In this document: positions 5,440 through 47,459 of the stretch, piece by piece | Numbering within the stretch: the first letter of the stretch is position 1 | How the letters are laid out: each line of letters opens with the position of its first letter | Source: a phage | Strand: one strand, 5' to 3' | Sequence record: PZ445405.1 | DNA: 50,126 bases | The notes under the pieces: model-generated | What the model was told of the DNA's origin: nothing | The model's input: the letters and a program-made list of their open reading frames with translations, nothing else | Database searches by the model: none | Program-made: the position numbers and the translations under genes

Positions 5440-6873
5440 ATGGCTAGCGAATTAAGAGCAGTAACCGCTGGGACTGCCCACGCCCTAAAGCAAAAAATCA
5501 TGGAATACATTGCTGATGGTTGGCAGCCTTATGGAAGAATCCTTAACGCTGGAGCGACTAGCGTTGGTATCATCATGGCGAAAGGTACTACAGCAAGCAT
5601 TAATGATGTTGATGTTATTACCGCAGATTCAAGGGCTTCTTTAGTTTCTAAGATTAACTCATCCATCGAAAATGGGTTTGAGATGTTCGGAGAGCAGGAA
5701 GTGAACGCAAGTAGATTTATCGCCTTCATGACTAAGGGTTCTCAAGGTTCATCTGGTGGCGGTGGAGAACCTGGACCAATTGGGCCTAAGGGTGAGAAGG
5801 GTGACAAGGGCGACAAGGGAGATGTTGGTGAGCGCGGACCCGCTGGCCTAGCTGGTGCGGCTGGCGCTACTGGTCCATCTGGCCCTCAAGGTTTAACTGG
5901 CCCCGCCGGCGCTAAAGGTGATACTGGTGAGCAGGGACCAATGGGTCCAACTGGCGCTACTGGACCTAAAGGTGATACTGGCGAAACTGGTCCCGCCGGA
6001 CCGCAGGGCCCAAGAGGATTGCAAGGTGAGCAGGGGGTTCCGGGCGAGGTTGGTCCTGCTGGATTGACATTCCAGGGCGCATGGGATTCTGCTGCGACAT
6101 ATGTGAAGGATGACACTGTAGTTTATGATGGGTCTACTTGGTTTGCTCCAGATGCTGTAGCTGCTGGATTAGTCCCTGGAGTTGCTACTGAGTGGATTCT
6201 TTTAGCTGCGCAAGGCGCAAGGGGCGAGGATGGTCCGCAGGGTCCGGTTGGCCCTCAGGGTTTACAGGGTGCCACTGGCCCAGCGGGTCCTACTGGTGCT
6301 ACTGGTGCTACAGGCCCGCAAGGCCCTAGAGGTATACAAGGTCAAACTGGCCCGGCAGGCCCAGCAGGTCCTCAGGGTGAGGCTGGTCCTCAGGGTATTC
6401 AGGGTCCGCAGGGTGTCGCTGGGCCTCAGGGATTAACTGGTCCTCAGGGTCCAAAAGGTGATAAAGGCGATGCTCCTTACACATTATTTAACTCGCAGAA
6501 CGTTACATCAACATACATTGAAATCCCTATTCCGCAAGTAACCAACACTGTACTTAGGGTTAGGCTTTCAGGTGCCAACTTTGAATATAGCGTTTTAAGC
6601 AAAGGCGGCGCCAATAGATATGTTGACTTTTACACATTCATCCCGTCATTAACTAGCTCAACGGGTAACATCTATACCGGAGGAACTACCTTGACACCAA
6701 CTGGTAGCCTCTTTTTGGGTAACTCCCCCGTGGCTCTTGGATTGAGGGAGTTGACAATAACACTCAAGGAATGGGGCGACAGAACGCTAACTACAATAAA
6801 GGCGATACATCACGGCAGATCAGGTGACACAACAAGACCTTTGCAGATAACTATGTTTAGTAATAAGTATTAA
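5440..6873 (+). CDS. Collagen-like (Gly-X-Y repeat) protein, probable virion fibre
   Basis: Two long uninterrupted G-X-Y tracts ([20 protein letters not shown].. and [22 protein letters not shown]..) flanked by globular N- and C-terminal domains. Confidence 0.8.
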
Positions 6874-6953
6874 CAAAAAGCCCACCATTGCGTGGGCTAA
6901 AAACTCGTGTATAATGAACCCGTAGACACCTAACTGAAAAGGAACAATAAAGA

Positions 6954-7927: not shown

Positions 7928-7990
7928 CGTCTGTACCAAATGGATTTGTTCGGTTATAATCACTCAATCAGATAAACAAAGGAGAAAAAA

Positions 7991-10573: not shown

Positions 10574-10650
10574 ATAGCACTTTTTGCCAAAGATCTTATT
10601 CAACTTTGCTGTATAGTTACCTCATCGAAACGAAATGAGAGATTAAAGAA
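10574..10650 (+). promoter_or_regulatory. Promoter cassette, T-rich-centre variant (ATAGCACTTTTTGCCAAA, 22 bp, TATAGT 10612-10617, leader CATCGAAACG)
   Basis: Same geometry as the canonical cassette; drives the lipoprotein ORF. Confidence 0.55.
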
Positions 10651-15664: not shown

Positions 15665-15738
15665 ATAGCACGAATTGCTAAACACCAACGCGACGGATGG
15701 CGTATAGTTACTTCATCGAAACGAGAGGAGATAAATAA
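15665..15738 (+). promoter_or_regulatory. Canonical promoter cassette (box 15665-15682, TATAGT 15703-15708, leader CATCGAAACGAGAGGAG)
   Basis: Near-identical to the cassette at 537-611; TTGCTA to TATAGT spacing 22 bp. Confidence 0.6.
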
Positions 15739-22174: not shown

Positions 22175-22258
22175 TTTGTATTCCTTAGTAAGTTCGTTTC
22201 GTTTCGATGGAGTAATAGTATCGCATCCTTGCGATCAGTGTTTAGCAATTCGTGCTAT
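22175..22258 (-). promoter_or_regulatory. Canonical promoter cassette on the minus strand (box at 22241-22258)
   Basis: Reverse complement reads ATAGCACGAATTGCTAAA, 22 bp, TACTAT, CATCGAAACGAAACG; the box also encodes the C-terminus (NSTNC) and stop of the upstream gene. Confidence 0.55.
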
Positions 22259-22931: not shown

Positions 22932-23003
22932 ATTAAAACCCCTCTCGTTAAAGTGCGGCGATTATACCGCGCAAAATTTATTGTTCTTTGGCAATTCGTG
23001 CCA
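22932..23003 (-). promoter_or_regulatory. Promoter cassette variant on the minus strand (box TGGCAcgaatTGCCA, 22 bp, TATAAT, leader AACGAGAGGGG)
   Basis: Perfect palindrome variant of the box; -10 TATAAT (rc of 22961-22966); upstream stop codon abuts the box. Confidence 0.55.
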
Positions 23004-23005
23004 TA

Positions 23006-24172: not shown

Positions 24173-24276
24173 GATTTGATGTTCGGCCTGAAATTCAGGT
24201 TGGATGACGACACCATTGCCGCCATGCGCCTAAATATAACTAAAGATACCCAGTTGTCTTTAGCAATTAGTGCTAT
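24173..24276 (-). promoter_or_regulatory. Promoter cassette on the minus strand (box at 24259-24276, centre CTAAT; -10 TATATT)
   Basis: Reverse complement ATAGCACTAATTGCTAAA followed 22 bp later by TATATT; long leader with a possible 18-codon upstream ORF. Confidence 0.45.
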
Positions 24277-24299
24277 TTATCGCCAATTCCACCATAAAT

Positions 24300-24640
24300 C
24301 ACAGTTACACGTAACCGATGTAACTCGATGTATACAATCTCGTCCGCGGAAAATGGTATACGCCCTGTTACGCCTGGTTACGCTATAGTTACATTAAAAT
24401 ATCTATATATATCAACCTTTTACTCTTATTATTATTATTATATATATTACTATGTATATCATGTAACTACTTCTATGGAGTGTTCCGGTTGTAATTTTAA
24501 TATCATGTGGATTTATACAGTATCTAACAATCAGCATAGCAACGCACCCTCCTTGAAGAATGGTATACACGATATACACGCTGGTTACATTGAGCTATAG
24601 CTGGTCTGGGGTGCCAAAAAGCGTAACTAGTGGCAGTGCC
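24300..24640. repeat. Iteron plus microsatellite control region A (paralog of region B at 42866-43200)
   Basis: CGATGTA x2 at 10-bp spacing (24316, 24326), GTTACGC x2 at 10-bp spacing (24367, 24377), (TA)n 24394-24402, (TTA)5 24426-24440, palindrome AGCTATAGCT 24593-24602; same motif order as region B. Confidence 0.7.
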
Positions 24641-24714
24641 TACACGGAATTACAAGGATTCACGCGTAAACTTAATAAATTGATAGGCACAAACGATATG
24701 ACTTATCACCTCCT

Positions 24715-24763
24715 AGTGCATATAGTTATCTCATCGAAAGCAAACAACCAGAGAGATAAAGAA
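24715..24763 (+). promoter_or_regulatory. Box-less cassette variant (TATAGT 24721-24726 plus conserved leader CATCGAAAGC)
   Basis: -10-like element and leader match the cassette family but no palindromic box lies 22 bp upstream. Confidence 0.4.
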
Positions 24764-24958
24764 ATGACCTACTACATTATCAAAGAGAAAAACAACGCAC
24801 TGTTCGGTGACTGCTACTTTGGTGGCCCTGCCGGATACACAACGGATAAGAACGAGGCTGACAGATTCGAGACTAAAGAAGAAGCCCGAGATGTGCTGAC
24901 TGGTTACTTCACAGTAGAAGATATGAAATCGGTTAAGGTTGTTGAGGTGAAGGAATAA
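24764..24958 (+). CDS. Hypothetical small protein (64 aa)
   Basis: ATG with SD GAGAG downstream of the leader; motif GDCYFGGPAGYTTD. Confidence 0.4.
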   Translation: MTYYIIKEKNNALFGDCYFGGPAGYTTDKNEADRFETKEEARDVLTGYFTVEDMKSVKVVEVKE

Positions 24959-24961
24959 AAT

Positions 24962-25927
24962 ATGAGCTTTAAAGTTTTTACGCGAGAGGAACTAAGCAAC
25001 GAGGCTTATCATAACGAGACTGAGCATATATCAGGCAGTTCAATTGTCGAGATTATCCAGGGCTCTCCGGCTAAGTGGAAGTTTAAACAGCGTAATAATG
25101 ATAGCAAGGCTCTTAAGTTCGGAACGCTGAGTCACACATACATCCTAGAGGGTGACGTGTTTGATAAAGAATACCTGAGAGCAACTGACCTTGACTCAAT
25201 TGAAGGATTGATTACCAGCCAAACCGGTTTGGCTGCGGCACTTAAGAAAGTTGGTGTGGCTGGCACGTCAGGGAAGGGGTATGGCGAGCTTGTAGAGATG
25301 ATGTATCGCTCTGGTGAGGATTGGCCTGTTAAATGGCTAATTGAGCAGAAGGAGAGCGCTCAGGCGCTTGTGGAGGGTAAGGAGTTAGTTAGCGCAGCGG
25401 ACTACGACAAAGTGGTGGCGATGCGTGAGGTTCTTTGCAATATTCCGGCATACGATAAGATTGTTAATAGTGAGACGGCGCAGAAGGAGTTATCAATCTT
25501 CGGTGAGATTCTAGGCGTTGGCGTTAAGATTCGAATCGACCATGTTGACGTTATTGATGGAGTCGTTCGGATCACAGACTATAAAACGACAGCGGACGCA
25601 AGCCCTGAGGGATTTGGCAAATCGGCATTCTCGCACGGGTACCTTGCAAAAATGTCGCTTCAGCGCGATCTGTTTGTGAAGGCATTCAACGAGAAGCGAA
25701 AGGTTGTTGTGGGATTGTTAGCACAGGAGAAGGTAGAGCCATACTTACCAATGCTTTACACCTTGACGGACGAGCAGTTACGAATTGGTAGGTTGCAGTA
25801 TCTTGAGGCGTTGGCCACTTATAAGAAGTGCAAGGAGCTAGATATCTGGCCGGGGTACTCGAATGGGATTACAGAGCAAGAGCTACTAGTTCCTGAGTGG
25901 GCACTGAAACAATACAAAGAAATATAA
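24962..25927 (+). CDS. PD-(D/E)XK-family nuclease, putative recombination exonuclease
   Basis: Motifs IDHVDVIDG and ITDYKT (D..D.K core); genomic context with Erf and SSB. Confidence 0.5.
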   Translation: MSFKVFTREELSNEAYHNETEHISGSSIVEIIQGSPAKWKFKQRNNDSKALKFGTLSHTYILEGDVFDKEYLRATDLDSIEGLITSQTGLAAALKKVGVAGTSGKGYGELVEMMYRSGEDWPVKWLIEQKESAQALVEGKELVSAADYDKVVAMREVLCNIPAYDKIVNSETAQKELSIFGEILGVGVKIRIDHVDVIDGVVRITDYKTTADASPEGFGKSAFSHGYLAKMSLQRDLFVKAFNEKRKVVVGLLAQEKVEPYLPMLYTLTDEQLRIGRLQYLEALATYKKCKELDIWPGYSNGITEQELLVPEWALKQYKEI

Positions 25928-26002
25928 ATAGCACGAATTGCTAAAGACAAAATTAACGAGTGGGGTATGATTGCCCCATCAACAACGAACGAGGTTAAAA
26001 TT
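25928..26002 (+). promoter_or_regulatory. Canonical promoter cassette (box 25928-25945, TATGAT 25966-25971, leader CATCAACAACGAACGAGG)
   Basis: Box overlaps the stop of the upstream gene; 22-bp spacing conserved. Confidence 0.55.
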
Positions 26003-29771: not shown

Positions 29772-29789
29772 ATAGCACGAATTGCTAAA
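29772..29789 (+). promoter_or_regulatory. Orphan palindromic box ATAGCACGAATTGCTAAA without downstream -10 or leader
   Basis: Perfect box lying between two minus-strand genes, 24 nt from the tail-fibre start codon. Confidence 0.4.
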
Positions 29790-29811
29790 GTGGATTGTAT
29801 CATCTTTAGGG

Positions 29812-29842
29812 CATAAAAAAACCTCCCGAAGGAGGTTAGTTT
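29812..29842. terminator. Bidirectional terminator overlapping the primase stop codon
   Basis: CCTCC-cgaa-GGAGG flanked by A7 and TTAGTTT. Confidence 0.55.
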
Positions 29843-30759
29843 AGTAGTTCGCTTGCCTTATAGATTCTCTTTCTTATTCCTGACTTGAAAAAATTATCAT
29901 CATTTGGCATTACCACATCAATATTGCGATCGTCAGCAACGGCGAGTAAATCAAGATCGTGGCGAGTACAAGCGATGCGTAACTTGTATTTTCTAAGCGC
30001 GTAAGCAACCATTTCCATGTTGTAGATGGAGTAGCAAACAAGCACGCAGCGGTTGCCAGTAGCAATGTGAACACGATAGCCGTCAATGAGATTATCGACC
30101 AGATAAGCGTAATCATCATCCTTAAAGGAACCAATAACAGAAACAGATTGGCGAGTATAATCTTTTGCAGCATAACTAACACCTCCATATTCATTGATAA
30201 ACATTACATTACACATTTCTTCTGATATGCCGTCACTATAAGCCATAAAGCACGGCACTGCGTGTATTAGTTCGCCTGATTTTGTTCTGCCAACATCAAA
30301 GCCAAACTCGCTATAGATTCCCTCGTATGTACTGAGCGGAGTTGATTCTACTCTTTCAGTCCTTTCCATTATCTCTAAGCATCTTTCGTGGTCAATCTGA
30401 GCGCCCATTTTGTAGATCTGGGTTCTTGATGCTTGCTTGTTTGCTTTAACTATAACCTCAATTGGTGTTAAGTTCAGCCAGTCACCAAGCAAATTTACTG
30501 AATCGGCGAAGGACGATCCAGTGCACTTCATGACCCATCCTATACCGGAGTCACTCCCGCATTTCGAACAAACTGCCGCGCCATTTCCTTTTTCACTGCC
30601 TATTTCGTCGGTAAATCTGAATCTGTCAGTGCCAAAGCAGTATGGGCATGGTCCGTGCTTCTTACTTAGGTGTCTATCATTCCAACCAAGTTCCTTTGCA
30701 TAAAATGATTTCCACAATCCGGCCATCTTAGGTATAACTTCATTCTTATCGTAATTCAT
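29836..30759 (-). CDS. DNA primase-like protein with zinc-ribbon
   Basis: Cys motifs CPYCFG..CSKCGSD in the N-terminal region; ATGA coupling with the upstream HNH gene; replication gene context. Confidence 0.5.
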   Translation of the reverse strand: MNYDKNEVIPKMAGLWKSFYAKELGWNDRHLSKKHGPCPYCFGTDRFRFTDEIGSEKGNGAAVCSKCGSDSGIGWVMKCTGSSFADSVNLLGDWLNLTPIEVIVKANKQASRTQIYKMGAQIDHERCLEIMERTERVESTPLSTYEGIYSEFGFDVGRTKSGELIHAVPCFMAYSDGISEEMCNVMFINEYGGVSYAAKDYTRQSVSVIGSFKDDDYAYLVDNLIDGYRVHIATGNRCVLVCYSIYNMEMVAYALRKYKLRIACTRHDLDLLAVADDRNIDVVMPNDDNFFKSGIRKRIYKASELLN

Positions 30760-31235
30760 TTGCTTAACCCGTGATTTTCGTGAAAGTTGTATTTTCTCTC
30801 TGCTTCAATTCTTACTTTATACGCCTGCTCTGGAGTATCGAAGTTCCCAAGGTGTAACTGCTTACCGTCAACCTTGATGTGAGCCTTAAATTTTCCGTGA
30901 TTTAGCTTTGCCACTCCACAATAACCAGTTGTTGATAAAACGCTAAGCCTGCAATTTCTTGAGTTACCTTGATTTGTTGTTACTCTTAGGTTTTCTATTC
31001 TGTTATCTAATTTGTTATGGTTTATATGATCAATGTAGTCGCCATTTTGAAGTTCTCCATTAAACATCTCCCACACAACTCTATGTACGTAAGTCCTAAA
31101 GCCATTAACAGACACTTTGTAATAGCCAGATGTAGATAGTGAGTTGCACTCATCGCCAACCTTAACACGTCTTGCAGTGCTAATCTTCCAATGCAATTTG
31201 CCATCTACATAGTAAAAATAATCATGCCAGTTCAT
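30756..31235 (-). CDS. HNH homing endonuclease (HNH + AP2-like), copy 2
   Basis: Motifs DHINHNKLDNRIENLRVTT and paralogy to the other two copies. Confidence 0.8.
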   Translation of the reverse strand: MNWHDYFYYVDGKLHWKISTARRVKVGDECNSLSTSGYYKVSVNGFRTYVHRVVWEMFNGELQNGDYIDHINHNKLDNRIENLRVTTNQGNSRNCRLSVLSTTGYCGVAKLNHGKFKAHIKVDGKQLHLGNFDTPEQAYKVRIEAERKYNFHENHGLSK

Positions 31236-31308
31236 TTTCTTCTCTCCAATAAAAAAGGATGTACCGATTATGGCACATCCAATCCTTTAATCTTTAGCTT
31301 TTCGTGCT
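31236..31308 (-). promoter_or_regulatory. Cassette variant upstream of HNH-2 (box AGCACGAAAAGCTAAAG, terminator hairpin, CATAAT, TTTTTTATTGGAGA RBS junction)
   Basis: Box overlaps the C-terminus and stop of the upstream gene; hairpin GGATGT..ACATCC. Confidence 0.45.
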
Positions 31309-31760
31309 GCTTCGTTAGCTGCCTTAATCTTGCGCCACGATCGACACTCTGGCTTGGTGGCCAGTTCAGCCTCAGTTACCACACGCAGCATGTGACGTTT
31401 TTTGCAGCGTAGAGTTAGTGGTTTTCCGTTACCGTCGAATTGCAGGTCTGGTCTACAGAATGTGGCGCGAAAACCTTCTCCGGTTCGTTTGTAGTAGTTG
31501 TGCGACAGTTGAGCGCCACGTGCAGAAATCATACCACGCTTAAACCACTCTTCTACAGCCTGCGGCGTTACCTTTAACTGCTTTGCGATATTCGCCTTTG
31601 TGCCGAAGAAATCAAGAATCATCTCTAACCTTGCGCGTAACCCAGCCCTTACCTCATCTTTCAAAACGTAGTAACCTGAAGGTCGCTTTCGCTGCTTTTT
31701 ATCTTCAGTGCGGATGGTTCCGTTATTGCCGTTAATGGTTCGCTTGTCAATTGTACTCAT
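31287..31760 (-). CDS. Putative HTH DNA-binding protein (157 aa)
   Basis: HTH-like segment ANIAKQLKVTPQAVEEWFKRGMIS; basic; first gene of an early minus-strand operon. Confidence 0.45.
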   Translation of the reverse strand: MSTIDKRTINGNNGTIRTEDKKQRKRPSGYYVLKDEVRAGLRARLEMILDFFGTKANIAKQLKVTPQAVEEWFKRGMISARGAQLSHNYYKRTGEGFRATFCRPDLQFDGNGKPLTLRCKKRHMLRVVTEAELATKPECRSWRKIKAANEAARKAKD

Positions 31761-31772
31761 TTCATTACCTCG

Positions 31773-31861
31773 ATAGCATTTTTTGTTAAAAGTCATTCTG
31801 ATTTGATGGTAGTATTGTACTCAATTAAACGCTACAAGACAATTTTTATAGGAATTTAGAT
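31773..31861 (+). promoter_or_regulatory. T-rich-centre cassette upstream of the helicase gene (ATAGCATTTTTTGTTAAAAG)
   Basis: Box-like sequence followed at about 21 bp by TAGTAT; ATG at 31862. Confidence 0.4.
31814..31842 (-). promoter_or_regulatory. Sigma70-like promoter on the minus strand (TTGTCT, 17 bp, TACAAT)
   Basis: Canonical 17-bp spacing, divergent from the helicase cassette; would drive the HTH, HNH-2, primase operon. Confidence 0.4.
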
Positions 31862-33856: not shown

Positions 33857-34272
33857 ACATAACAGATAAAGAAGATTACATTGAGTTTTACCCGGGCCCG
33901 GTTAAGTATTGCCCTAAAGAGGATGACGAGCAAATCTTTTGCTCTGATTGGGTTAAGTATCATTACCCTCAGATTGTTTACTGGCACACGGTTAATGAAT
34001 CGATGAAGACCATTGGACAGGCAAGAAAAGACCAGGCCAAAGGTTTGCTTAAGGGGGTTTCGGACTGCTTATTCCTGATACCTGAATCACTTCGTGGTAA
34101 ATACCCTTTTGGAGCCATAGAGCTAAAAAGGGCCGGGAAGACGCAGGCGAGTCCAGTCAGCGACGAACAGAAGTCCTTCCTTAAGAGCGTCAGAGAATCG
34201 GGCGGCTTCGGGGCTGTAGCTTACGGACGTGAGGGTTTTCTTGCGGCATTCAAAGAAATGATTTCAAAATAG
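33853..34272 (+). CDS. VRR-NUC domain nuclease (putative)
   Basis: Motif GVSDCLFLIPESLRGKYPFGAIELKR (D..E.K core); ATGA coupling to the helicase gene. Confidence 0.55.
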   Translation: MNITDKEDYIEFYPGPVKYCPKEDDEQIFCSDWVKYHYPQIVYWHTVNESMKTIGQARKDQAKGLLKGVSDCLFLIPESLRGKYPFGAIELKRAGKTQASPVSDEQKSFLKSVRESGGFGAVAYGREGFLAAFKEMISK

Positions 34273-34350
34273 CACGAATTGCTAAAGACGTTTCGGTGAG
34301 TTGGTGTATTATCTATTCATCGAAACGAAACGCACAAAGAGAGAAACAAA
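34269..34350 (+). promoter_or_regulatory. Canonical promoter cassette (box 34269-34286, TATTAT 34307-34312, leader CATCGAAACGAAACG)
   Basis: Box contains the TAG stop of the upstream gene; 22-bp spacing. Confidence 0.55.
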
Positions 34351-34641
34351 ATGGCTACTATCTATACTGGTAAATTCTACGAATCACGCAAAACTGGTTA
34401 TGAGTATGAATTAGTAATAACCCCAGAAGGTTATGTACTTGATGATGGTGAAGGGTACGCATTCGAAGTTAGCCCGACTTACAAAGATGATTTAGAAACT
34501 GTTAAAAACGCATTTGGCGAAAAATTTGATGTTATTGATGATGGTGATGGCTACGCATTCGAAGTTAGCCCAACCTACAAAGATGATTTAGAAACTGTTA
34601 AAAACGCATTTGGCGAAAAAATTGATGAGGTATCAGAGTAA
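34351..34641 (+). CDS. Hypothetical acidic protein with internal 32-aa tandem duplication
   Basis: Two 96-bp direct repeats (34441-34536 and 34537-34632) encoding DDGEGYAFEVSPTYKDDLETVKNAFGEK twice. Confidence 0.5.
   Translation: MATIYTGKFYESRKTGYEYELVITPEGYVLDDGEGYAFEVSPTYKDDLETVKNAFGEKFDVIDDGDGYAFEVSPTYKDDLETVKNAFGEKIDEVSE
34441..34632 (+). repeat. Tandem 96-bp in-frame duplication (2 units, about 93% identical)
   Basis: Direct comparison of the two units shows only about 7 substitutions. Confidence 0.8.
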
Positions 34642-34862: not shown

Positions 34863-35050
34863 TTGGAATCTGCGTAAAAACAAATGGACGCTTTACACTG
34901 CTCGAGGATTACGAAATCAACTTTGATTCAGGCGGCGCAATAACAGTAAAAGGAGAAGATGAATTACATTGGTTCCTTAGTTATCAAGGTGATGGCTACT
35001 ACGGTTGCACGGATTGCTACGGAAAAGAAGTTAGCTTCTTAGTAGAATAG
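34859..35050 (+). CDS. Hypothetical protein (63 aa)
   Basis: ATGA overlap with the upstream gene; SD GGAG. Confidence 0.35.
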   Translation: MIGICVKTNGRFTLLEDYEINFDSGGAITVKGEDELHWFLSYQGDGYYGCTDCYGKEVSFLVE

Positions 35051-35120
35051 CACTTTTTGTTAAAACTCAAATCCAGGGATGGATTATATTAAGCACATAA
35101 ACAACGAAGAGGGTTAAGAG
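35047..35120 (+). promoter_or_regulatory. T-rich-centre cassette (ATAGCACTTTTTGTTAAAAC, 22 bp, TATATT 35085-35090)
   Basis: Box overlaps the TAG stop of the upstream gene; leader with SD AAGAGGG. Confidence 0.5.
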
Positions 35121-35493: not shown

Positions 35494-35745
35494 ATGTTGG
35501 GTTTAGATTTCCAGCCAGAGCATTACGATTTAGTGCACGGGAAAAGTGGTGCAAAGTTTAGGTCGATACCTATCTCTGACTGGTTCCCTCCTGATTATGT
35601 GGATGTGAACGCAAAAACTAAAGGCGGGAAGTGGGTGCAGATTTACTACTCCCCAGCATGCGGAAACCTTTGCATGACTGACCTTGACAAAAAATTAGCA
35701 ATTAGTGCGGAAGTGATCGACTACTGGTTGAAAGAAGTTGAATGA
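35494..35745 (+). CDS. Hypothetical protein (83 aa)
   Basis: ATG with SD AAGGA; ORF from the six-frame track. Confidence 0.4.
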   Translation: MLGLDFQPEHYDLVHGKSGAKFRSIPISDWFPPDYVDVNAKTKGGKWVQIYYSPACGNLCMTDLDKKLAISAEVIDYWLKEVE

Positions 35746-36959: not shown

Positions 36960-37031
36960 ATAGCACCTTTTGTTAAAACAGTAGCCGCGAAAGCGGCTAT
37001 TATTGTTTTATACAAACGATAGGAGATTGAA
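36960..37031 (+). promoter_or_regulatory. T-rich-centre cassette upstream of HNH-3 (ATAGCACCTTTTGTTAAAAC, hairpin, TATTAT 36998-37003)
   Basis: 22-bp spacing; hairpin AGCCGCG-aaa-GCGGCT in the spacer; SD AGGAG. Confidence 0.5.
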
Positions 37032-37517
37032 ATGAATTGGCATGATATTTTTGAATACAACGATGGCATTCTTTATCATAAAGTTAAGTTATGTATAAGA
37101 AATGATGTTAACGTTGGTGATATTGCTGGGGGGGGCGTTAGGCAAAACGGCTATCACTACGTGAATTACAAAAATAAGTTTTACAAAAGGTCAAGGGTTG
37201 TATGGGAGATGTTTAATGGAGATATACCTGAGGGATTTGTCATTGATCACGTCAACCATGACGCGACAGATGACAGGATAGAAAACCTAGAGTGCAAGGA
37301 GCGCAGGGATAACATGGTTAATGTAAAGCTAAGGATTGATAGCTCCTCTGGTGTAACTGGTGTAGCAAGAAAGAGCGGTAATAAGTGGAGGGCATACATA
37401 ACAATCATGGGTAAGCAGAAGTCCAAGAGCTTTAACACGTTTGAGGATGCTTGCGCACAGAGGATTGAATGGTCGGTAACTCATGATTTTCACCCAAATC
37501 ACGGTGGAAAATACTAA
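37032..37517 (+). CDS. HNH homing endonuclease (HNH + AP2-like), copy 3
   Basis: Motif VIDHVNHDATDDRIENLE and paralogy to copies 1 and 2. Confidence 0.8.
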   Translation: MNWHDIFEYNDGILYHKVKLCIRNDVNVGDIAGGGVRQNGYHYVNYKNKFYKRSRVVWEMFNGDIPEGFVIDHVNHDATDDRIENLECKERRDNMVNVKLRIDSSSGVTGVARKSGNKWRAYITIMGKQKSKSFNTFEDACAQRIEWSVTHDFHPNHGGKY

Positions 37518-37602
37518 ATAGCACTTTTTGCCTAACCCATGCCGTAGAAATGCGGCATAATCACCACATCGAAACGAGATTAACTAAACGAGGAAACGCA
37601 AG
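37518..37602 (+). promoter_or_regulatory. T-rich-centre cassette (ATAGCACTTTTTGCCTAAC, hairpin, CATAAT 37556-37561, leader CATCGAAACGAG)
   Basis: 22-bp spacing; hairpin ATGCCG-tagaa-ATGCGGCAT. Confidence 0.5.
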
Positions 37603-39338: not shown

Positions 39339-40922
39339 TCACCCCAGCAGTCGTGGATTAATGTAAACTTTATCACCAATCAGGCATGTATAGTTTTTCT
39401 CATCTAACATCGGCAGCAAGTGGTCTTTAATCTTTGTCATCACTCCAGCCTGAGACTCGAACGGCTTAACCTTGCGCGCAGCCTCATACAATGAACGAAT
39501 GCCAACTACGCCTTTCCCGTTCTTTCCTTGCTTGATAAGGATATCAATCAGCTTATTCATCTCGGCATTGTCGCCAGCGTGACCAGCGGCGTTAGCAGAT
39601 GACAGATAAGTCTTGCTAAGCTCCTGGAACATGATTACAGCCTCTTGCATTGTGTCCAGTCCAATCTCTCTGGACTTCTGCGGGCTTCCGCCATTTGGGT
39701 TAAACCAGTTACGGACAGTGTGAATAACTGCGGCAATCCTGATAGCCTGCTTATCGAACTTGCCCAGCGCGCCGCGCAACATAGTATGTGAATACTTACC
39801 GCCATCAGCAAGATGGGGCTCCATTTCCTGACGTGCACGGTTGAGATATTTCATCGCTGAGTTACTCACTGTCAGCTTTACTTCCTGCTCGCTCATGATT
39901 TCGTGAACCAAGCGGAAGTAGTCAGCCTTCAGTCCGCTGTCAATTGGCTCGTATGTTGACTCTCCATTCTCATCAACGAATACACGTTCGCCCAGGAAGG
40001 ACTTTTCACGCACAAGCAGAAAACGCTCCGACACACCGATACCACGCGCACCAGCATTCATAATGGCGTTGATTGTTTCGTCCTGCGCAATTACCGAGAT
40101 GCAACCCATAGCAACGAAACTCATGTTGTTCTCTGCGTTCGCACGCGCGATAGATACGTTACCAGCATCCCATGCTTTAAGCACGAGTTCACTGTTTGTT
40201 TTCTTTGAGCCATCTCCATAGGTCATGCCCAGAAGTGAGTTCACGCTCGTCGCCTCATCCGAGATTACTGCGAAGTTTCCCTGGCGGTTGTTTATTCGCG
40301 CAAGTCCCTCAGGCGTGGTGTCGGATACGGGGAAAACGATATCGCATAGCTTCTCGAGTTTCTCCTCCAACTCCTCTTTCTCTTCAAAAAGTGAAGCCAT
40401 CTCTGAAGGAGATTTTTCCTGCTTCATCTCTTTGGATAATGCAGATAGTTTGGCCATAATCTTTTTGCGCTCGCGTTTTCGCAATTCATTTAGTCGCTCA
40501 GTCTCGGCAATCATCGGGGCAATAGAAAGTGAGTTAATCGCTGATTTACCGGTCGATGGAGGTTGACTTGTAACTACGTAAAGAGATGTTGGCTGCTGCG
40601 TTCCGTGATACTCAACAGTAAAGCGGCCCAGCATAGCAGCGGAAATGCAACCCAAAAAGTGCATATAAGCTGAAGACTCCGGGAACTGAACAGAACGAGC
40701 AATGTTGGCTGACAGTCTACCAACAACGTCAACATCATTTCCGAGCGAGATTACAGGATACTTGTCATTGGCCGCATCAATCTCGACCGGTGCTTTCCAG
40801 AATGACTGAGACTGGCGATAGCCATTAGCATTGATAGCCACGCGCAGGGGTGGGAGGTTTTCTGCGGCAGCTATTGCCATAACTTGTTCAACAGATAGTT
40901 TATCTTCGTTGAAATCAAACAT
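39339..40922 (-). CDS. Replicative P-loop NTPase (primase-helicase / SF3 helicase-like)
   Basis: Walker A PSTGKS and Walker B-like AVISDEAT; N- and C-terminal regions shared with the paralog at 43766-44293. Confidence 0.6.
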   Translation of the reverse strand: MFDFNEDKLSVEQVMAIAAAENLPPLRVAINANGYRQSQSFWKAPVEIDAANDKYPVISLGNDVDVVGRLSANIARSVQFPESSAYMHFLGCISAAMLGRFTVEYHGTQQPTSLYVVTSQPPSTGKSAINSLSIAPMIAETERLNELRKRERKKIMAKLSALSKEMKQEKSPSEMASLFEEKEELEEKLEKLCDIVFPVSDTTPEGLARINNRQGNFAVISDEATSVNSLLGMTYGDGSKKTNSELVLKAWDAGNVSIARANAENNMSFVAMGCISVIAQDETINAIMNAGARGIGVSERFLLVREKSFLGERVFVDENGESTYEPIDSGLKADYFRLVHEIMSEQEVKLTVSNSAMKYLNRARQEMEPHLADGGKYSHTMLRGALGKFDKQAIRIAAVIHTVRNWFNPNGGSPQKSREIGLDTMQEAVIMFQELSKTYLSSANAAGHAGDNAEMNKLIDILIKQGKNGKGVVGIRSLYEAARKVKPFESQAGVMTKIKDHLLPMLDEKNYTCLIGDKVYINPRLLG

Positions 40923-40996
40923 TATTTCTCTCCGTGCTGATTCTGAGCGGTCATTATATCAACGACCGCTTATAATTCATTATCAATTTTTGCTAT

Positions 40997-41347: not shown

Positions 41348-41428
41348 TTTATTTACCTTTCGTTATTTCGTTTCGATGAGATGAATATACAGGAAAAGCC
41401 CCCGAAGGGCTTTATCAATTAGTGCTAT
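41348..41428 (-). promoter_or_regulatory. Promoter cassette on the minus strand (box rc of 41411-41428, terminator-like hairpin in spacer, TATATT, leader CATCGAAACGAAA)
   Basis: Box ATAGCACTAATTGATAAA; spacer 23 bp contains GCCC-ttcg-GGGGC; the box encodes the C-terminal NSTN-stop of the upstream small ORF. Confidence 0.5.
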
Positions 41429-42620: not shown

Positions 42621-42692
42621 ATCTATACCCTCGTTGTTGATGAGCTAACTATACCCTCAACAGCCGCGCTTGTCTTTAGCAAAAAGTGCTAT
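42621..42692 (-). promoter_or_regulatory. T-rich-centre cassette on the minus strand (box rc of 42675-42692, TATAGT, leader CATCAACAACGAGGG)
   Basis: Reverse complement ATAGCACTTTTTGCTAAA; spacing 22-23 bp. Confidence 0.5.
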
Positions 42693-42800: not shown

Positions 42801-42865
42801 CAATAAAGTAGTGAGTGAGTGAATGAAAGATGGATGGACTACCATACAAGTTGATTTTGATTCTG

Positions 42866-43200
42866 CTAATCCATTTTCACGCTTACACGTAACGCCCGTA
42901 GCGCGATGTAAGCCAACGCCTATCGTTACGCGAGTTACGCGCAGCTACGCCTAGACTTACACTATAAGTGCCTAATATATATATATATCTTCTTTCTATT
43001 ATTATTATTATTATTATTATTATTGTATGTAAGTCATGTAACGGGGTTTCCGGCGATATCTATATGTTTTTTCCTATCAGTTATAGCCTTGGCTATAATT
43101 TAAGGTATGGAGTGGGTGTTTTGGGGCCATTTGCCTCGTTACACGCACGACACGCCACTTACATTAAGCTATAGCTGGGCTAGCATACCATTTCGCGTAA
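42866..43200. repeat. Iteron plus microsatellite control region B (paralog of region A)
   Basis: ACGTAAC 42887, CGATGTA 42904, G(T/C)TACGC x3 at 42925/42934/42944, (AT)7 42975-42988, (TAT)9 42997-43023, palindrome AGCTATAGCT 43167-43176. Confidence 0.7.
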
Positions 43201-43229
43201 CGACCCCCAAAAGTTACCAAAAATTACAC

Positions 43230-43258
43230 TTGACTACATGTGTAAGTCGGGATATGAT
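43230..43258 (+). promoter_or_regulatory. Strong sigma70-type promoter (TTGACT, 17 bp, TATGAT) with conserved leader
   Basis: Near-consensus hexamers at canonical spacing; leader AAACGAGAGGAG precedes ATG 43290. Confidence 0.6.
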
Positions 43259-43289
43259 GGACTCAACTTAAACGAGAGGAGTGATAGAG

Positions 43290-43769
43290 ATGAACGAGAA
43301 AGTAACATTGGGCCAAGTGATTCGTGAGATGGTGAAAGCAGCGCTTAAGTCTGAGGACAAGCAGATCAGCGTGACACTCAACAAGATTGAGAGCCTTATC
43401 GGCGCCGAGGAGGGTGGTCTAAATAAGCTTAAGAGCTCATACATCTACAATACAACGGCTCGCATGCCTGAGTTGAGAGATGCCGGACTGAAGGCGACTC
43501 ACCACTATGATGAAGAAAGGGGTGTTAATGAATATACTGGGAGTGAGATACTTGGAGACAAAAAGCTTGTTATTAAACTAATTCCAGGCTCGGCAAACAT
43601 TGGAATCAGGAAGAAGACCAACGACGCGATCAAGGATGAGGCAATCACTGAGTTCAAAGCCAGGATTTCTAAGGTGATGCCAGACCTTTCTGCGTATGAA
43701 GGTGAGGCCCTTGCAGCCGCTATGAAGGCCATTAAGGATTACCGTTTGATTATTGAGGAGATTAAGTGA
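43290..43769 (+). CDS. Hypothetical protein (159 aa), likely immediate-early
   Basis: First gene behind the sigma70 promoter; SD GAGGAG. Confidence 0.45.
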   Translation: MNEKVTLGQVIREMVKAALKSEDKQISVTLNKIESLIGAEEGGLNKLKSSYIYNTTARMPELRDAGLKATHHYDEERGVNEYTGSEILGDKKLVIKLIPGSANIGIRKKTNDAIKDEAITEFKARISKVMPDLSAYEGEALAAAMKAIKDYRLIIEEIK

Positions 43770-44293
43770 TGTTTGACTTTAACGAGGATAAACTGACAGA
43801 AGAGCAGGTAATTGAGATAGCCAAGCAAGATGGGCTGCCGCCGCTGCGAATTGCAATCAATGCTAACGGGTATCGACAGTCAACGGCGTTTTGGGGCTCG
43901 ATTGATACCTCAGGGGTGTATAGTGGTGATGAGCTTGGTGTAATGATTAAAATCATCAGGAAAATGGGAGTTAACGGCAAAGGAGTTGTTGGCGTCAGGT
44001 CTCTATATGAAGGTGCTCGCAAGCTGAAACCATTTGCGGGGCGCGATGGGATGATGCTACTGATTAAGGATAAGCTAATTCCAGAGCTCGACAAGATGAA
44101 TATCACGTGCCTCATTGGCGATAAGATTTACGTCAACCCTGCCTTGACGGATTTAAGCTGGCATCCTAACTTCAAAACTTACGAAGGTGAGCACGCTAGT
44201 AGACTACCATACCACTTGCGGTACACTGAGGAAGAGGTGGAGAAGGCTATTGAGTTCTATCGGAAAGCTAAATCACTAATTATCGCCAAATAG
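43766..44293 (+). CDS. Truncated paralog of the primase-helicase (N- and C-terminal domains only, no ATPase core)
   Basis: N-terminus MFDFNEDKL..LPPLRIAINANGYRQS and segment NGKGVVGVRSLYEGARKLKPF..CLIGDKIYVNP match the two ends of the 527-aa protein. Confidence 0.55.
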   Translation: MMFDFNEDKLTEEQVIEIAKQDGLPPLRIAINANGYRQSTAFWGSIDTSGVYSGDELGVMIKIIRKMGVNGKGVVGVRSLYEGARKLKPFAGRDGMMLLIKDKLIPELDKMNITCLIGDKIYVNPALTDLSWHPNFKTYEGEHASRLPYHLRYTEEEVEKAIEFYRKAKSLIIAK

Positions 44294-44363
44294 CACGAAT
44301 TGCTAAACAATGGATCGGGTAGTCAGCTATGATTACTTCATCGACAACAAAGAGGAAATGAAG
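44290..44363 (+). promoter_or_regulatory. Canonical promoter cassette (box 44290-44307, TATGAT 44328-44333, leader CATCGACAACAAAGAGG)
   Basis: Box contains the TAG stop of the upstream gene; 22-bp spacing. Confidence 0.55.
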
Positions 44364-44570
44364 ATGAAAAACGTTATTATTGAAGATATTCACTTTGACC
44401 AAGCTGAGGTAGGAATCGCAAAAAGCGTTCGCGGAAACGTTGTATATCTGAACTTCGATCCAGATAACTACGGGGACGGCCAGACACTGATGCAGTACAG
44501 TCCTGAGCAAGCACGCAAACTGGCGGCGGCGTTAATCATGGCAGCGGACGAGGCGGAGAAGCAGCGATAG
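44364..44570 (+). CDS. Hypothetical protein (68 aa)
   Basis: ATG 44364 at good distance from SD AAGAGG; start ambiguous with 44358. Confidence 0.4.
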   Translation: MKNVIIEDIHFDQAEVGIAKSVRGNVVYLNFDPDNYGDGQTLMQYSPEQARKLAAALIMAADEAEKQR

Positions 44571-44640
44571 CACGAATTGTTAAAAAGGGATTCATCCTGA
44601 CTGGTATAATCCCCACATCAACAACGAGACACTACTTATC
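44567..44640 (+). promoter_or_regulatory. Promoter cassette (box ATAGCACGAATTGTTAAA, 22 bp, extended -10 TGGTATAAT 44602-44610)
   Basis: Leader CATCAACAACGAGAC but no substantial ORF until 44826. Confidence 0.5.
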
Positions 44641-45440: not shown

Positions 45441-45513
45441 ATAGCACGAATTGCTAAACCCGCTCCGGCGGGTTTTGTTATAGTTAGTTCACACCAAACG
45501 AGAGGTAAGAGAA
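45441..45513 (+). promoter_or_regulatory. Canonical cassette with terminator hairpin in the spacer (TATAGT 45479-45484)
   Basis: Box 45441-45458, hairpin ACCCGC-tccg-GCGGGT plus T-run inside the 22-bp spacer, leader CACCAAACGAGAGG. Confidence 0.55.
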
Positions 45514-45732: not shown

Positions 45733-45866
45733 TTTACATCCACACGTACTACACTGGCAAGTTTAACAGTGTTAAGCACATTAGTGTTCACGATACGTAC
45801 GATAGCGCAAAGGCTCAGTGGTTGGTTCTTGGCGGCGATATTAATTCATATAGAGTTGCTGAATAG
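45729..45866 (+). CDS. Hypothetical small protein (45 aa)
   Basis: ATGA-coupled; its TAG stop lies in the next cassette box. Confidence 0.25.
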   Translation: MIYIHTYYTGKFNSVKHISVHDTYDSAKAQWLVLGGDINSYRVAE

Positions 45867-45936
45867 CACTAATTGATAAAACAGCATTGGGGTAATTTGC
45901 TATAGTTACCCCATCGAAACGAGCGAGGTCAAAGAG
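45863..45936 (+). promoter_or_regulatory. Promoter cassette (box ATAGCACTAATTGATAAA, 22 bp, TATAGT 45901-45906, leader CATCGAAACGAGCGAGG)
   Basis: Exact 22-bp spacing. Confidence 0.55.
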
Positions 45937-46293: not shown

Positions 46294-46433
46294 GCTTCAC
46301 TGAATATGTTATAGCATGTGAACGACTGGTCTTTGATATGAAAACTTTCCACTGGTTCATAATTAAAGACTTAATAAAGCCTTACAAGCAGGGCGTTACC
46401 CCAGAGGCGTTTGTTAAGTCATTCTACAAATAG
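46290..46433 (+). CDS. Hypothetical small protein (47 aa)
   Basis: Stop TAG lies inside the next cassette box. Confidence 0.3.
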   Translation: MSFTEYVIACERLVFDMKTFHWFIIKDLIKPYKQGVTPEAFVKSFYK

Positions 46434-46505
46434 CACGAATTGCTAAACGAAGTCGCCACGGATGGCATATAATTACCCTATCAATACAAAGAGAGAGATT
46501 GAGAA
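46430..46505 (+). promoter_or_regulatory. Canonical promoter cassette (box 46430-46447, TATAAT 46468-46473)
   Basis: Hairpin GCCA-cgga-TGGC in the 22-bp spacer, as in the cassette at 537. Confidence 0.55.
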
Positions 46506-47381: not shown

Positions 47382-47459
47382 GCTCTGCTAGCTCAATTGG
47401 ACAGCAGCAACGACCTTCTAAGTCGTAGGTTACTGGTTCGAATCCAGTGCGGAGCGCCA
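47382..47459 (+). tRNA. tRNA-Arg (anticodon TCT)
   Basis: Cloverleaf readable by eye: acceptor GCTCTGC/GCGGAGC (one G-U pair), anticodon stem ACGAC/GTCGT with loop CTTCTAA, T-arm ACTGG-TTCGAAT-CCAGT, encoded CCA; D-stem has one mismatch. Confidence 0.7.

Follow-up and report, generated by a model that had tools for sequence, protein, structure and literature searches.

A repeated promoter element of a T1-like coliphage matches the class II marbox of the host regulators MarA, SoxS and Rob

Two kinds of promoter are found in the stretch of phage DNA in record PZ445405.1, which was analysed over 50,126 nucleotides (nt) and is called the window here, with positions counted from its first letter. 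The first is a repeated cassette in which a short conserved box precedes a -10 hexamer at a fixed distance, and the second comprises sigma70-type promoters without this box, such as the one at 43230-43258. Judged by its sequence and spacing, the cassette box is a marbox, the site of the host activators MarA, SoxS and Rob, in class II geometry with the spacing seen in the micF promoter; binding to it is predicted. It is probable that the cassettes are served by one of these host activators and not by an activator made by the phage. The window belongs to a virulent T1/Rtp-like siphovirus, a coliphage of the Drexlerviridae that is Braunvirinae-like; phages RobRod40, Rtp, BEK2 and others share 86-88% identity with it across 65-75% of its length, and it represents an Rtp-like species different from TLS.

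The pattern TAGCACNWWTTGNTAAA, which describes the cassette box ATAGCACnnnTTGnTAAA, occurs 21 times in the window against 0.77 expected. A -10-like hexamer follows the 17-mer at exactly 20 nt in 17 of the 21 boxes, which equals 22 nt after TTGnTA and agrees with the cassette with a 22-bp spacer described in the original prediction; other gaps are 21 nt (two cassettes) and 19 nt (one). The cassettes lack a usable -35, and their box, aATAGCACnnnTTGnTAAA, precedes a good -10 by exactly 20 nt. These -10 hexamers are near consensus, and many cassettes contain a weak -35-like TAAACA or AAGACA 16-18 nt from the -10. Boxes are located 71-88 nt from most start codons, and the cassettes are followed by a conserved leader, CATCGAAACGAGAGGAG, part of which is shared by the box-less promoters. 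Conservation within the box is asymmetric, the G of the left half being invariant and its partner C in the right half variable, and the invariant positions include ATA before GCAC, and TTG. In addition, every box that has a -10 is oriented so that GCAC...AAA reads towards it.

The published consensus of the marbox, an asymmetric site of the monomeric AraC/XylS activators MarA, SoxS and Rob, is 5'-GCAHWWWWTGYYAAA-3'; in Klebsiella, RamA recognises it as well. With this 15-mer, the T-type phage box, GCACTTTTTGCTAAA, agrees at 15 of 15 positions and the GAA-type at 14 of 15. Sites with at most one mismatch to it number 21 in the window, compared with 1.54 expected and a maximum of 6 in 100 Markov shuffles. 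A longer, 20-mer consensus is reportedly that of Martin et al. in 1999, AYNGCACNNWNNRYYAAAYN (AYnGCACnnWnnRYYAAAYn); with this consensus, 20 sites have at most one mismatch against 0.97 expected, and six have none. The proven marboxes of micF (ACAGCACTGAATGTCAAAAC) and mar (ATGCCACGTTTTGCTAAATC) carry 1-2 mismatches each; the latter was confirmed in MG1655, and TTTTGCTAAA is common to it and the T-type phage box.

The position of the box relative to the -10 agrees with this identity. Class II marbox promoters hold the site in forward orientation, overlapping the -35 and centred at about -36 to -55. In micF, the first base of the -10 comes 35 nt after the G of GCAC, with 20 nt between AAA and the -10; the corresponding distance from G to -10 in the cassettes is 35 nt in 17, 36 nt in two and 34 nt in one, a comparison made with one host promoter, micF. 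If the -10 is set at -12 to -7, the phage GCAC occupies -47 to -44 and the 15-mer spans about -47 to -33. In the cryo-electron microscopy structure of Rob with RNA polymerase, GCAC is found at G-47/A-45 and the -35 is covered by the B site (CAAA element), and RamA at micF is centred near -41. The one-way orientation and asymmetric conservation fit a monomeric binder with a pair of helix-turn-helix (HTH) motifs.

The cassettes outside the regulator locus, described below, and the orphan box are as follows, where G+35 or G+36 gives the distance of the -10 from the G of GCAC.

537-580, + strand: class II marbox cassette of gene 612, 0 mismatches to the 20-mer, -10 at G+35
10574-10617, + strand: class II marbox cassette of gene 10651
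15665-15708, + strand: class II marbox cassette of gene 15739
22215-22258, - strand: class II marbox cassette of gene 22174
22961-23004, - strand: class II marbox cassette of the DNA methyltransferase gene (22931), an ATGGCAC variant
24233-24276, - strand: class II marbox cassette of the Rha/anti-repressor-like gene (24130), with a long leader
25928-25971, + strand: class II marbox cassette of the Erf and SSB genes
34269-34312, + strand: class II marbox cassette of gene 34351
35047-35090, + strand: class II marbox cassette of gene 35121
36960-37003, + strand: class II marbox cassette of the HNH gene (37032), terminator hairpin between box and -10
37518-37561, + strand: class II marbox cassette of gene 37603, hairpin between box and -10
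40953-40996, - strand: box cassette of the DUF3987 ATPase gene (40922), 2 mismatches to the 17-mer and more than 1 to the 15-mer marbox consensus
41384-41428, - strand: class II marbox cassette of gene 41347, -10 at G+36, hairpin in the spacer
42648-42692, - strand: class II marbox cassette of gene 42620, -10 at G+36
44290-44333, + strand: class II marbox cassette of gene 44364, ending the two-gene unit of the 43230 promoter
44567-44610, + strand: class II marbox cassette upstream of the region of a dNMP-kinase-like gene
45441-45484, + strand: class II marbox cassette of gene 45514, terminator hairpin between box and -10
45863-45906, + strand: class II marbox cassette of gene 45937
46430-46473, + strand: class II marbox cassette of gene 46506
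29772-29791, + strand: orphan marbox, without a -10 and without a downstream + strand gene

Identical cassettes precede replication genes, small early-region genes and structural genes. Several have the terminator hairpin of the preceding gene between box and -10, and such packing makes a module of about 45 nt that ends one transcription unit and starts the next. Hairpins between marbox and -10 or around the -10 were observed at 36960-37003, 37518-37561, 41384-41428, 45441-45484 and 31257-31310. On the - strand, the orphan box at 29772-29791 falls in the leader of the lateral tail-fibre gene, with a TACAAT hexamer on one side and the Shine-Dalgarno sequence of that gene on the other. Phage T1 has the same orphan box (34903) before the equivalent gene, as well as an inverted box (15085) within the spacer of the promoter annotated for its major capsid gene; boxes that are orphan or inverted and lack a -10 may be repressing or roadblock sites. 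A marbox-like sequence with one mismatch to the 15-mer, TCCGCACTAATTGCTAATTT, was also noted at 35708 on the - strand, with no -10 at the standard distance.

Host class II marbox promoters, such as micF and also lpxC P2, lpxL P1 and rfaY P1, resemble the cassettes in their consensus fit, the forward orientation, the overlap with a weak or absent -35 and the good -10, and micF also shares the 35-nt distance from GCAC to the -10 and the asymmetric site in one orientation. However, the phage cassettes differ from host marbox promoters in their additional invariant ATA and TTG and in the terminator hairpins often found within them, and the marA/soxS/rob regulon consists of scattered degenerate sites, whereas the phage has about 20 near-identical, near-consensus copies as its main class of promoter. 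Other identities for the box were considered and rejected. A sigma54 (-24/-12) promoter, suggested by TGGCACGAATTGC-like copies, was compared with GG and GC elements 12 positions apart (TGGCACG-N4-TTGC) and a start about 12 nt downstream; the spacing of the box is 2 nt short, 20 of 21 copies have AG in place of GG, and a -10 is conserved 20 nt downstream. No sites of the IHF, CRP, FNR or lambda cII type were found in register in a comparison by eye with consensus sequences. A symmetric Cro-type operator was rejected too: the dyad TAGCA-N5-TGCTA is present, yet conservation and orientation are asymmetric.

No AraC/XylS protein was found in the phage by tblastn and phmmer searches with MarA in six frames, nor was a Pfam HTH_18 domain detected in 20 proteins; the best MarA tblastn match (E 0.28) fell within the large terminase gene, and phmmer gave no significant match. 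Taken with the marbox match, this makes a host activator the likeliest binder. A host activator for the cassettes would need no activator made by the phage, so a cascade through a phage activator is not favoured. The original prediction had assumed that one of the immediate-early genes encodes the activator of the cassette class, a proposal weakened by the identity of the box, which points to the host. Among the host proteins, Rob is known for its high constitutive expression.

In the mechanism that we propose, the phage would use host RNA polymerase with two kinds of promoter. The box-less promoters (43230, 24698 and 31842) have their own -35 and -10 and would be recognised by the sigma70 holoenzyme unaided. 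At each cassette, a host marbox activator would bind the box and replace the -35 contact, and the bound activator would touch sigma region 4 and the alpha subunit's C-terminal domain, thereby recruiting RNA polymerase. The likely candidate activator would be Rob in ordinary cells and either MarA or SoxS during stress, so that the cassette class would depend on a host factor present already at infection. Computation supports the sequences and spacings, their conservation and the match to the marbox and to micF, while we infer all binding, activation and timing from sequence.

The promoters and -10 elements without a box are listed below.

43230-43258, + strand: box-less sigma70-type promoter, -35 TTGACT at 43230-43235, 17-nt spacer, -10 TATGAT at 43253-43258
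24698-24726, + strand: third box-less sigma70-type promoter, ATGACT-17-TATAGT
31842-31814, - strand: sigma70-type promoter of the regulator gene, -35 TTGTCT at 31842-31837, 17-nt spacer, -10 TACAAT at 31819-31814
6888-6915: late-region box-less -10 element, TTGCGT-16-TG-TATAAT, directly after a terminator and before gene 6954
about 7956-7961: late-region box-less -10 TATAAT, directly after a terminator and before gene 7991

Both hexamer pairs named in the original prediction, at 43230 and 31842, are exactly as it gave them, although it missed the third promoter at 24698-24726. The coexistence of two promoter classes that it proposed also stands and is already known in relatives. The 2024 paper on phage TLS reported 'only three intergenic sigma70-like promoters' together with 21 copies of a 21-nt repeat, aaATAGCACnnnTTGnTAAAA, with similar repeats in T1, Rtp and Rogue1, and according to its Table S1 these promoters precede gp01, exoVIII and the regulator gene. 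The three box-less promoters of the window occupy the same positions, and the re-annotated T1 record has promoters before exoVIII and the regulator gene and a terminator after the latter. The TLS repeat is the same as the window box, is co-oriented with the genes and lies about 75-76 nt from start codons; its function was left open (stoperator, enhancer site or UP-like element), and a marbox was not mentioned. Among open-access papers, none was found that links marboxes to T1-like phages, and a literature search for transcript maps, temporal classes or chloramphenicol experiments in the T1 family returned nothing usable. As for the sigma70 half of the proposed programme, the 43230 promoter is credible and the regulator promoter is conserved; however, box-less -10s also occur in the late region, and the T1 record has a promoter annotated before the major capsid gene, so that equating sigma70 with immediate-early expression is not a clean rule.

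A sigma70 promoter was defined as a -35 near TTGACA and a -10 near TATAAT (A at position 2, T at position 6), 17 +/- 1 nt apart. The 43230 promoter fits this description with 10 of 12 consensus matches and ranks third in the window by position weight matrix (PWM), where three sites score at least as high against a Markov expectation of 1.5. A consensus scan of 30.2-50.1 kb gave 27 promoter-like sites compared with 37.4 +/- 5.8 in shuffles; hexamer statistics were consequently set aside as promoter evidence, being uninformative with counts no higher than chance. The 43230 promoter is kept in nine phages (Braunvirinae, Rogunavirinae and Nouzillyvirus) with the variants TTGATT, TATTAT and TACGAT. 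The region is conserved over its whole 180 nt, the spacer as much as the hexamers, so this conservation is not specific to the hexamers. The equivalent site is annotated as a promoter in the record of phage EC3a. Downstream, a Shine-Dalgarno sequence, GAGGAG (43276-43281), and an ATG at 43290, 31 nt from the site, follow, and transcription would start near 43265. What makes the sites at 43230 and 31842 credible is that both are intergenic, share the orientation of a gene whose start codon, 31-54 nt away, has a Shine-Dalgarno sequence, and are conserved. On this sequence evidence, sigma70 could credibly use the 43230 site without an activator; the promoter is ordinary in itself and of interest mainly as the contrast class. 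The 24698 promoter serves a 64-aa gene (24764-24958) and the RecE-like exonuclease VIII gene (24962-25927), and corresponds to TLS P51 and to the T1 promoter TTGACT-16-TATAAT. Its hexamers are kept in Rtp, ACG-M12 and IME542 (TGGACT; TATAGT or TATGAT) while the spacer is wholly different, which is a better signature of a real promoter.

The 43230 promoter and its unit comprise the following features.

43224-43245: inverted repeat TTACAC-N10-GTGTAA, bracketing the -35 hexamer and the spacer
43290-43769, + strand: gene of the DUF7174 protein (159 aa; Pfam PF23796, E 6e-46), first gene of the unit
43769-44293, + strand: gene of a truncated DUF3987 paralogue (174 aa), second gene of the unit

The inverted repeat is the final one in an array of GTTAC/TTACAC motifs, and since it brackets the -35, an operator may overlap the promoter; it is a possible candidate operator. 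The DUF7174 protein has a remote homologue in TLS gp01 (23% identity, E 4e-6), which is also behind a sigma70 promoter. The protein of 43769-44293 corresponds to the two ends of the phage's DUF3987 ATPase/helicase (39339-40922), the N-terminal 42 aa (74% identity) and the C-terminal ~90 aa (54%), and lacks the ATPase core; it is a truncated paralogue that would be expressed early. Sequence searches against solved structures with the DUF7174 protein and its neighbour gave no match. Two paralogous non-coding regions of about 400 bp were also observed, at 24280-24760 and 42860-43290, both with the same order: a - strand cassette at the left, a motif cluster (GTTAC(G/A)C, TTACACG and GTAAC, enriched 6-28 times), a (TTA)n/(TA)n tract, a 60-nt block that is 73% identical between the copies, and a box-less sigma70 promoter. 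Upstream of their first gene, T1 and TLS carry repeats specific to their lineages (GATTAACAC three times; GTGAACA twice). Possible functions of these regions are those of an origin, a pac site or an array of operators.

The two promoter classes meet at 31.8 kb, in the gap between the regulator gene and the helicase gene.

31773-31815, + strand: class II marbox promoter of the helicase gene (31862), marbox ATAGCATTTTTTGTTAAAAG, -10 TAGTAT at 31810-31815
31287-31760, - strand: regulator gene (157 aa; phrog_2856), Cro/CI-type HTH core at residues ~35-95
31280-31257, - strand: intrinsic terminator directly 3' of the regulator gene
31310-31267, - strand: class II marbox promoter of the HNH and primase genes, box GCAGCACGAAAAGCTAAAGA at 31310-31291, -10 CATAAT at 31272-31267
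30756-31235, - strand: HNH gene
29836-30759, - strand: primase gene

The helicase cassette has a -10 that overlaps the - strand -10 of the regulator promoter, and its box corresponds to about +17 to +33 of the regulator transcript and abuts the regulator Shine-Dalgarno sequence, an arrangement present in all eight lineages examined, Vc1 and Snitter included. Given the overlapping -10s and the box in the regulator leader, occupancy of the box should promote rightward transcription of the helicase gene and impede leftward transcription of the regulator gene. The regulator-helicase gap was compared in the window, T1, TLS, ETEP102, TSK1, egaa, IME542, Vc1 and Snitter. In most of these gaps, some 20 nt from a box, there is a -10 that points towards the regulator gene and has a -35-like hexamer 16-17 nt upstream of it, as in the following phages.

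T1: regulator promoter TTGAAT-17-TATAAT
TLS: regulator promoter TTGACT-17-TATCAT, published as P57
TSK1: regulator promoter TTGTCA-16-TG-TATAAT
egaa: regulator promoter TTGAGT-16-TG-TATAAT
IME542: regulator promoter TTGTTA-16-TG-TATAAT

The Snitter promoter has an extended -10 and a weak -35, and those of ETEP102 and Vc1 are weak or unclear, with a poor -35. The version in the window, with 9 of 12 consensus matches and PWM rank 9 (nine sites at least as good against a Markov expectation of 8.4), is among the weaker ones. Overall, the comparison supports conservation of a sigma70-type promoter before the HTH regulator gene in most family lineages examined.

The original prediction had joined the HTH, HNH and primase genes into one operon driven by this promoter. 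This does not hold, as the terminator at 31280-31257 makes the regulator unit monocistronic, and the HNH and primase genes have their own marbox promoter. The box of the latter, within the 3' end of the regulator gene, has two mismatches, and the G of its GCAC lies 35 nt before the -10 (both counted by hand); its -10 sits within the terminator hairpin. Snitter and T1 have a full box at the equivalent place, and the T1 and ETEP102 records also annotate a terminator after the regulator gene. An HNH gene is inserted between the regulator and primase genes in the window, whereas TLS, TSK1 and egaa have none at that place.

The start of the regulator gene at 31760 was picked on account of its Shine-Dalgarno sequence. 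Its product matches the Pfam P22_Cro HTH family below the Pfam cut-off, and Foldseek searches with its AlphaFold2 model (pLDDT 87) retrieved the Cro proteins of Xfaso1 and N15 (TM ~0.7, E 0.05-0.3). Homologues number 113 at E <= 0.001, the long contigs among them being ~45-52 kb, and the family appears confined to Drexlerviridae-like contigs. A basic N-terminal arm (residues 1-45), DKRTxNGNNGTxR..D..RKR..GYYVLKDEVRAGLRAR, was noted, with 14 invariant columns; it is more conserved than the HTH among 41 homologues, and AlphaFold2 confidence is low there. The protein also has a C-terminal extension. A search for an operator common to the three box-less promoters gave nothing convincing in the window, and in T1 only GTTACA is shared. 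Possible roles of the regulator are to bind the box, to modulate the host activator or to repress the box-less promoters.

Several points weigh against a host activator. By published accounts, Rob stays sequestered for the most part while no inducer is present, and MarA and SoxS are themselves inducible, so a phage that plates well on unstressed cells would need sufficient basal activity of these proteins. The ATA before GCAC and the TTG are invariant beyond the marbox consensus and may be there for a different protein. A Cro/CI-like regulator gene is conserved and always lies beside a box and behind a box-less promoter, as would be expected of a box binder encoded by the phage. Boxes also occur in Vc1, which is labelled a Vibrio phage. 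Searches of the available literature gave no data on binding, transcript starts or host mutants for T1-like phages. In addition, Pfam covered about a quarter of the phage proteins, and six-frame MarA searches would miss a very divergent homologue.

The rival reading is a cascade within the phage, in which the box-less promoters would be immediate-early and one of their products, most plausibly the Cro/CI-like regulator, would bind the box as a class II activator of all cassettes and, through the box in its leader, shut off its own promoter. The box-less promoter of the regulator has no other product, and a terminator comes after the gene; a box abuts its Shine-Dalgarno sequence in 8/8 lineages; the protein is modelled with a Cro/CI HTH fold; its family, like the boxes, appears restricted to Drexlerviridae-like contigs; and the partial dyad in the box is centred near -42. 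Systems with such a design, namely lambda cI at PRM, Mu Mor/C and the C-proteins of restriction-modification systems, have a site that overlaps or abuts the -35, a good -10, a poor -35 and, nearby, a small HTH protein made from an unaided promoter. However, these proteins bind symmetric sites as dimers, whereas the phage box is asymmetric, matching the site of a host monomeric activator. The box fits the marbox of that other, monomeric two-HTH family at every specified position and with micF spacing, an unlikely coincidence for a Cro-type dimer site. The asymmetric conservation and the strictly single orientation also argue against it, as does the presence of the same cassettes on replication, early-region and structural genes, which a single activator would not split into middle and late classes. 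We therefore regard activation by the regulator as unlikely, though a serious contender.

A function of the box without any activator, as an UP-like element or displaced -35, or as a negative element (stoperator or roadblock), is quite improbable. Such possibilities were listed by the TLS authors; the cassette -10s are near consensus, many having the weak -35-like hexamer at 16-18 nt, and the orphan or inverted boxes without a -10 (29772-29791; the T1 major-capsid promoter) would act negatively. A spacing of 22 nt between -35 and -10 lies beyond the range of sigma70, which counts against a displaced -35, and the invariant G/C positions (GCAC, TTG) are unlike A/T-rich UP elements. That 17 of 21 boxes keep a fixed 20-nt distance to the -10 is the mark of a promoter element rather than of a roadblock. 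The stoperators of mycobacteriophage L5 are likewise many short asymmetric sites, oriented with transcription in short intergenic gaps; however, they are not tied to a fixed -10 distance and act with a lysogenic repressor, while this phage is virulent and 17/21 of its boxes lie at 20 nt. The marbox match offers a specific and better explanation.

The two ideas could also be combined in a two-tier programme, in which host MarA, SoxS or Rob would be switched on or co-opted by an immediate-early protein encoded in one of the box-less units; the candidates are the Cro-like regulator, with its invariant N-terminal arm, the DUF7174 protein and the truncated ATPase paralogue. Such a product might free Rob from sequestration or shield MarA and SoxS from Lon, and these host activators of drug and oxidative stress responses would thereby serve the phage as its own transcription factor for about 20 marbox promoters. 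This, too, seems to us rather a long shot. Finally, it is very unlikely that the - strand hexamers at 31842-31814 are a chance match, with the regulator gene transcribed weakly or from elsewhere: the 9/12 match, the near-chance PWM count and the poor -35 of Vc1 and ETEP102 would allow it, but the arrangement recurs in T1, TLS, TSK1, egaa, IME542 and Snitter (extended -10), several of them near consensus, and the gap to the helicase gene, being 101 nt, leaves no other upstream room for a regulator promoter.

The remaining features of the window are as follows, a gene content in keeping with a T1/Rtp-like phage.

1 to 21 kb, + strand: structural genes
24.7-27.2 kb: recombination genes exoVIII, Erf and SSB
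27.2-31.8 kb, - strand: lateral tail fibre, primase, HNH endonuclease and HTH regulator genes
31.9-39 kb: helicase and more replication and lysis genes
39-42.6 kb, - strand: gene block
43.3 to 47.8 kb: small genes
47382-47459: tRNA-Arg, anticodon TCT, flanked by the small early-region genes and the small terminase gene
47951: small terminase gene
extending past the window end: large terminase gene
64-540, 30756-31235 and 37032-37517: three HNH_3 homing-type endonuclease genes

The tRNA was the sole match in an Rfam scan of the entire window. The 477-aa head-region protein encoded at 5440-6873 contains long collagen-like Gly-X-Y repeats, visible also as 9- and 18-nt direct repeats, and gene 34351-34641 contains a 96-nt tandem duplication at 34433-34624, in perfect register and 93% identical.

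Recognising a class II marbox in the cassette box is new and makes an unexplained repeat of the T1/TLS family a directly testable hypothesis. If a host activator serves the cassettes, they would fire without phage protein synthesis, that is, in the presence of chloramphenicol. Most transcription units of a virulent coliphage family would then be wired to the regulators of multidrug efflux (AcrAB-TolC) and porins, and phage yield would be tied to the stress state of the host, as set by bile salts, salicylate, oxidants or antibiotics. Such a dependence would be relevant to phage therapy in the gut and to interactions between phages and antibiotics, and the cassettes would be a source of compact, strong promoter-terminator modules responsive to MarA, SoxS and Rob.

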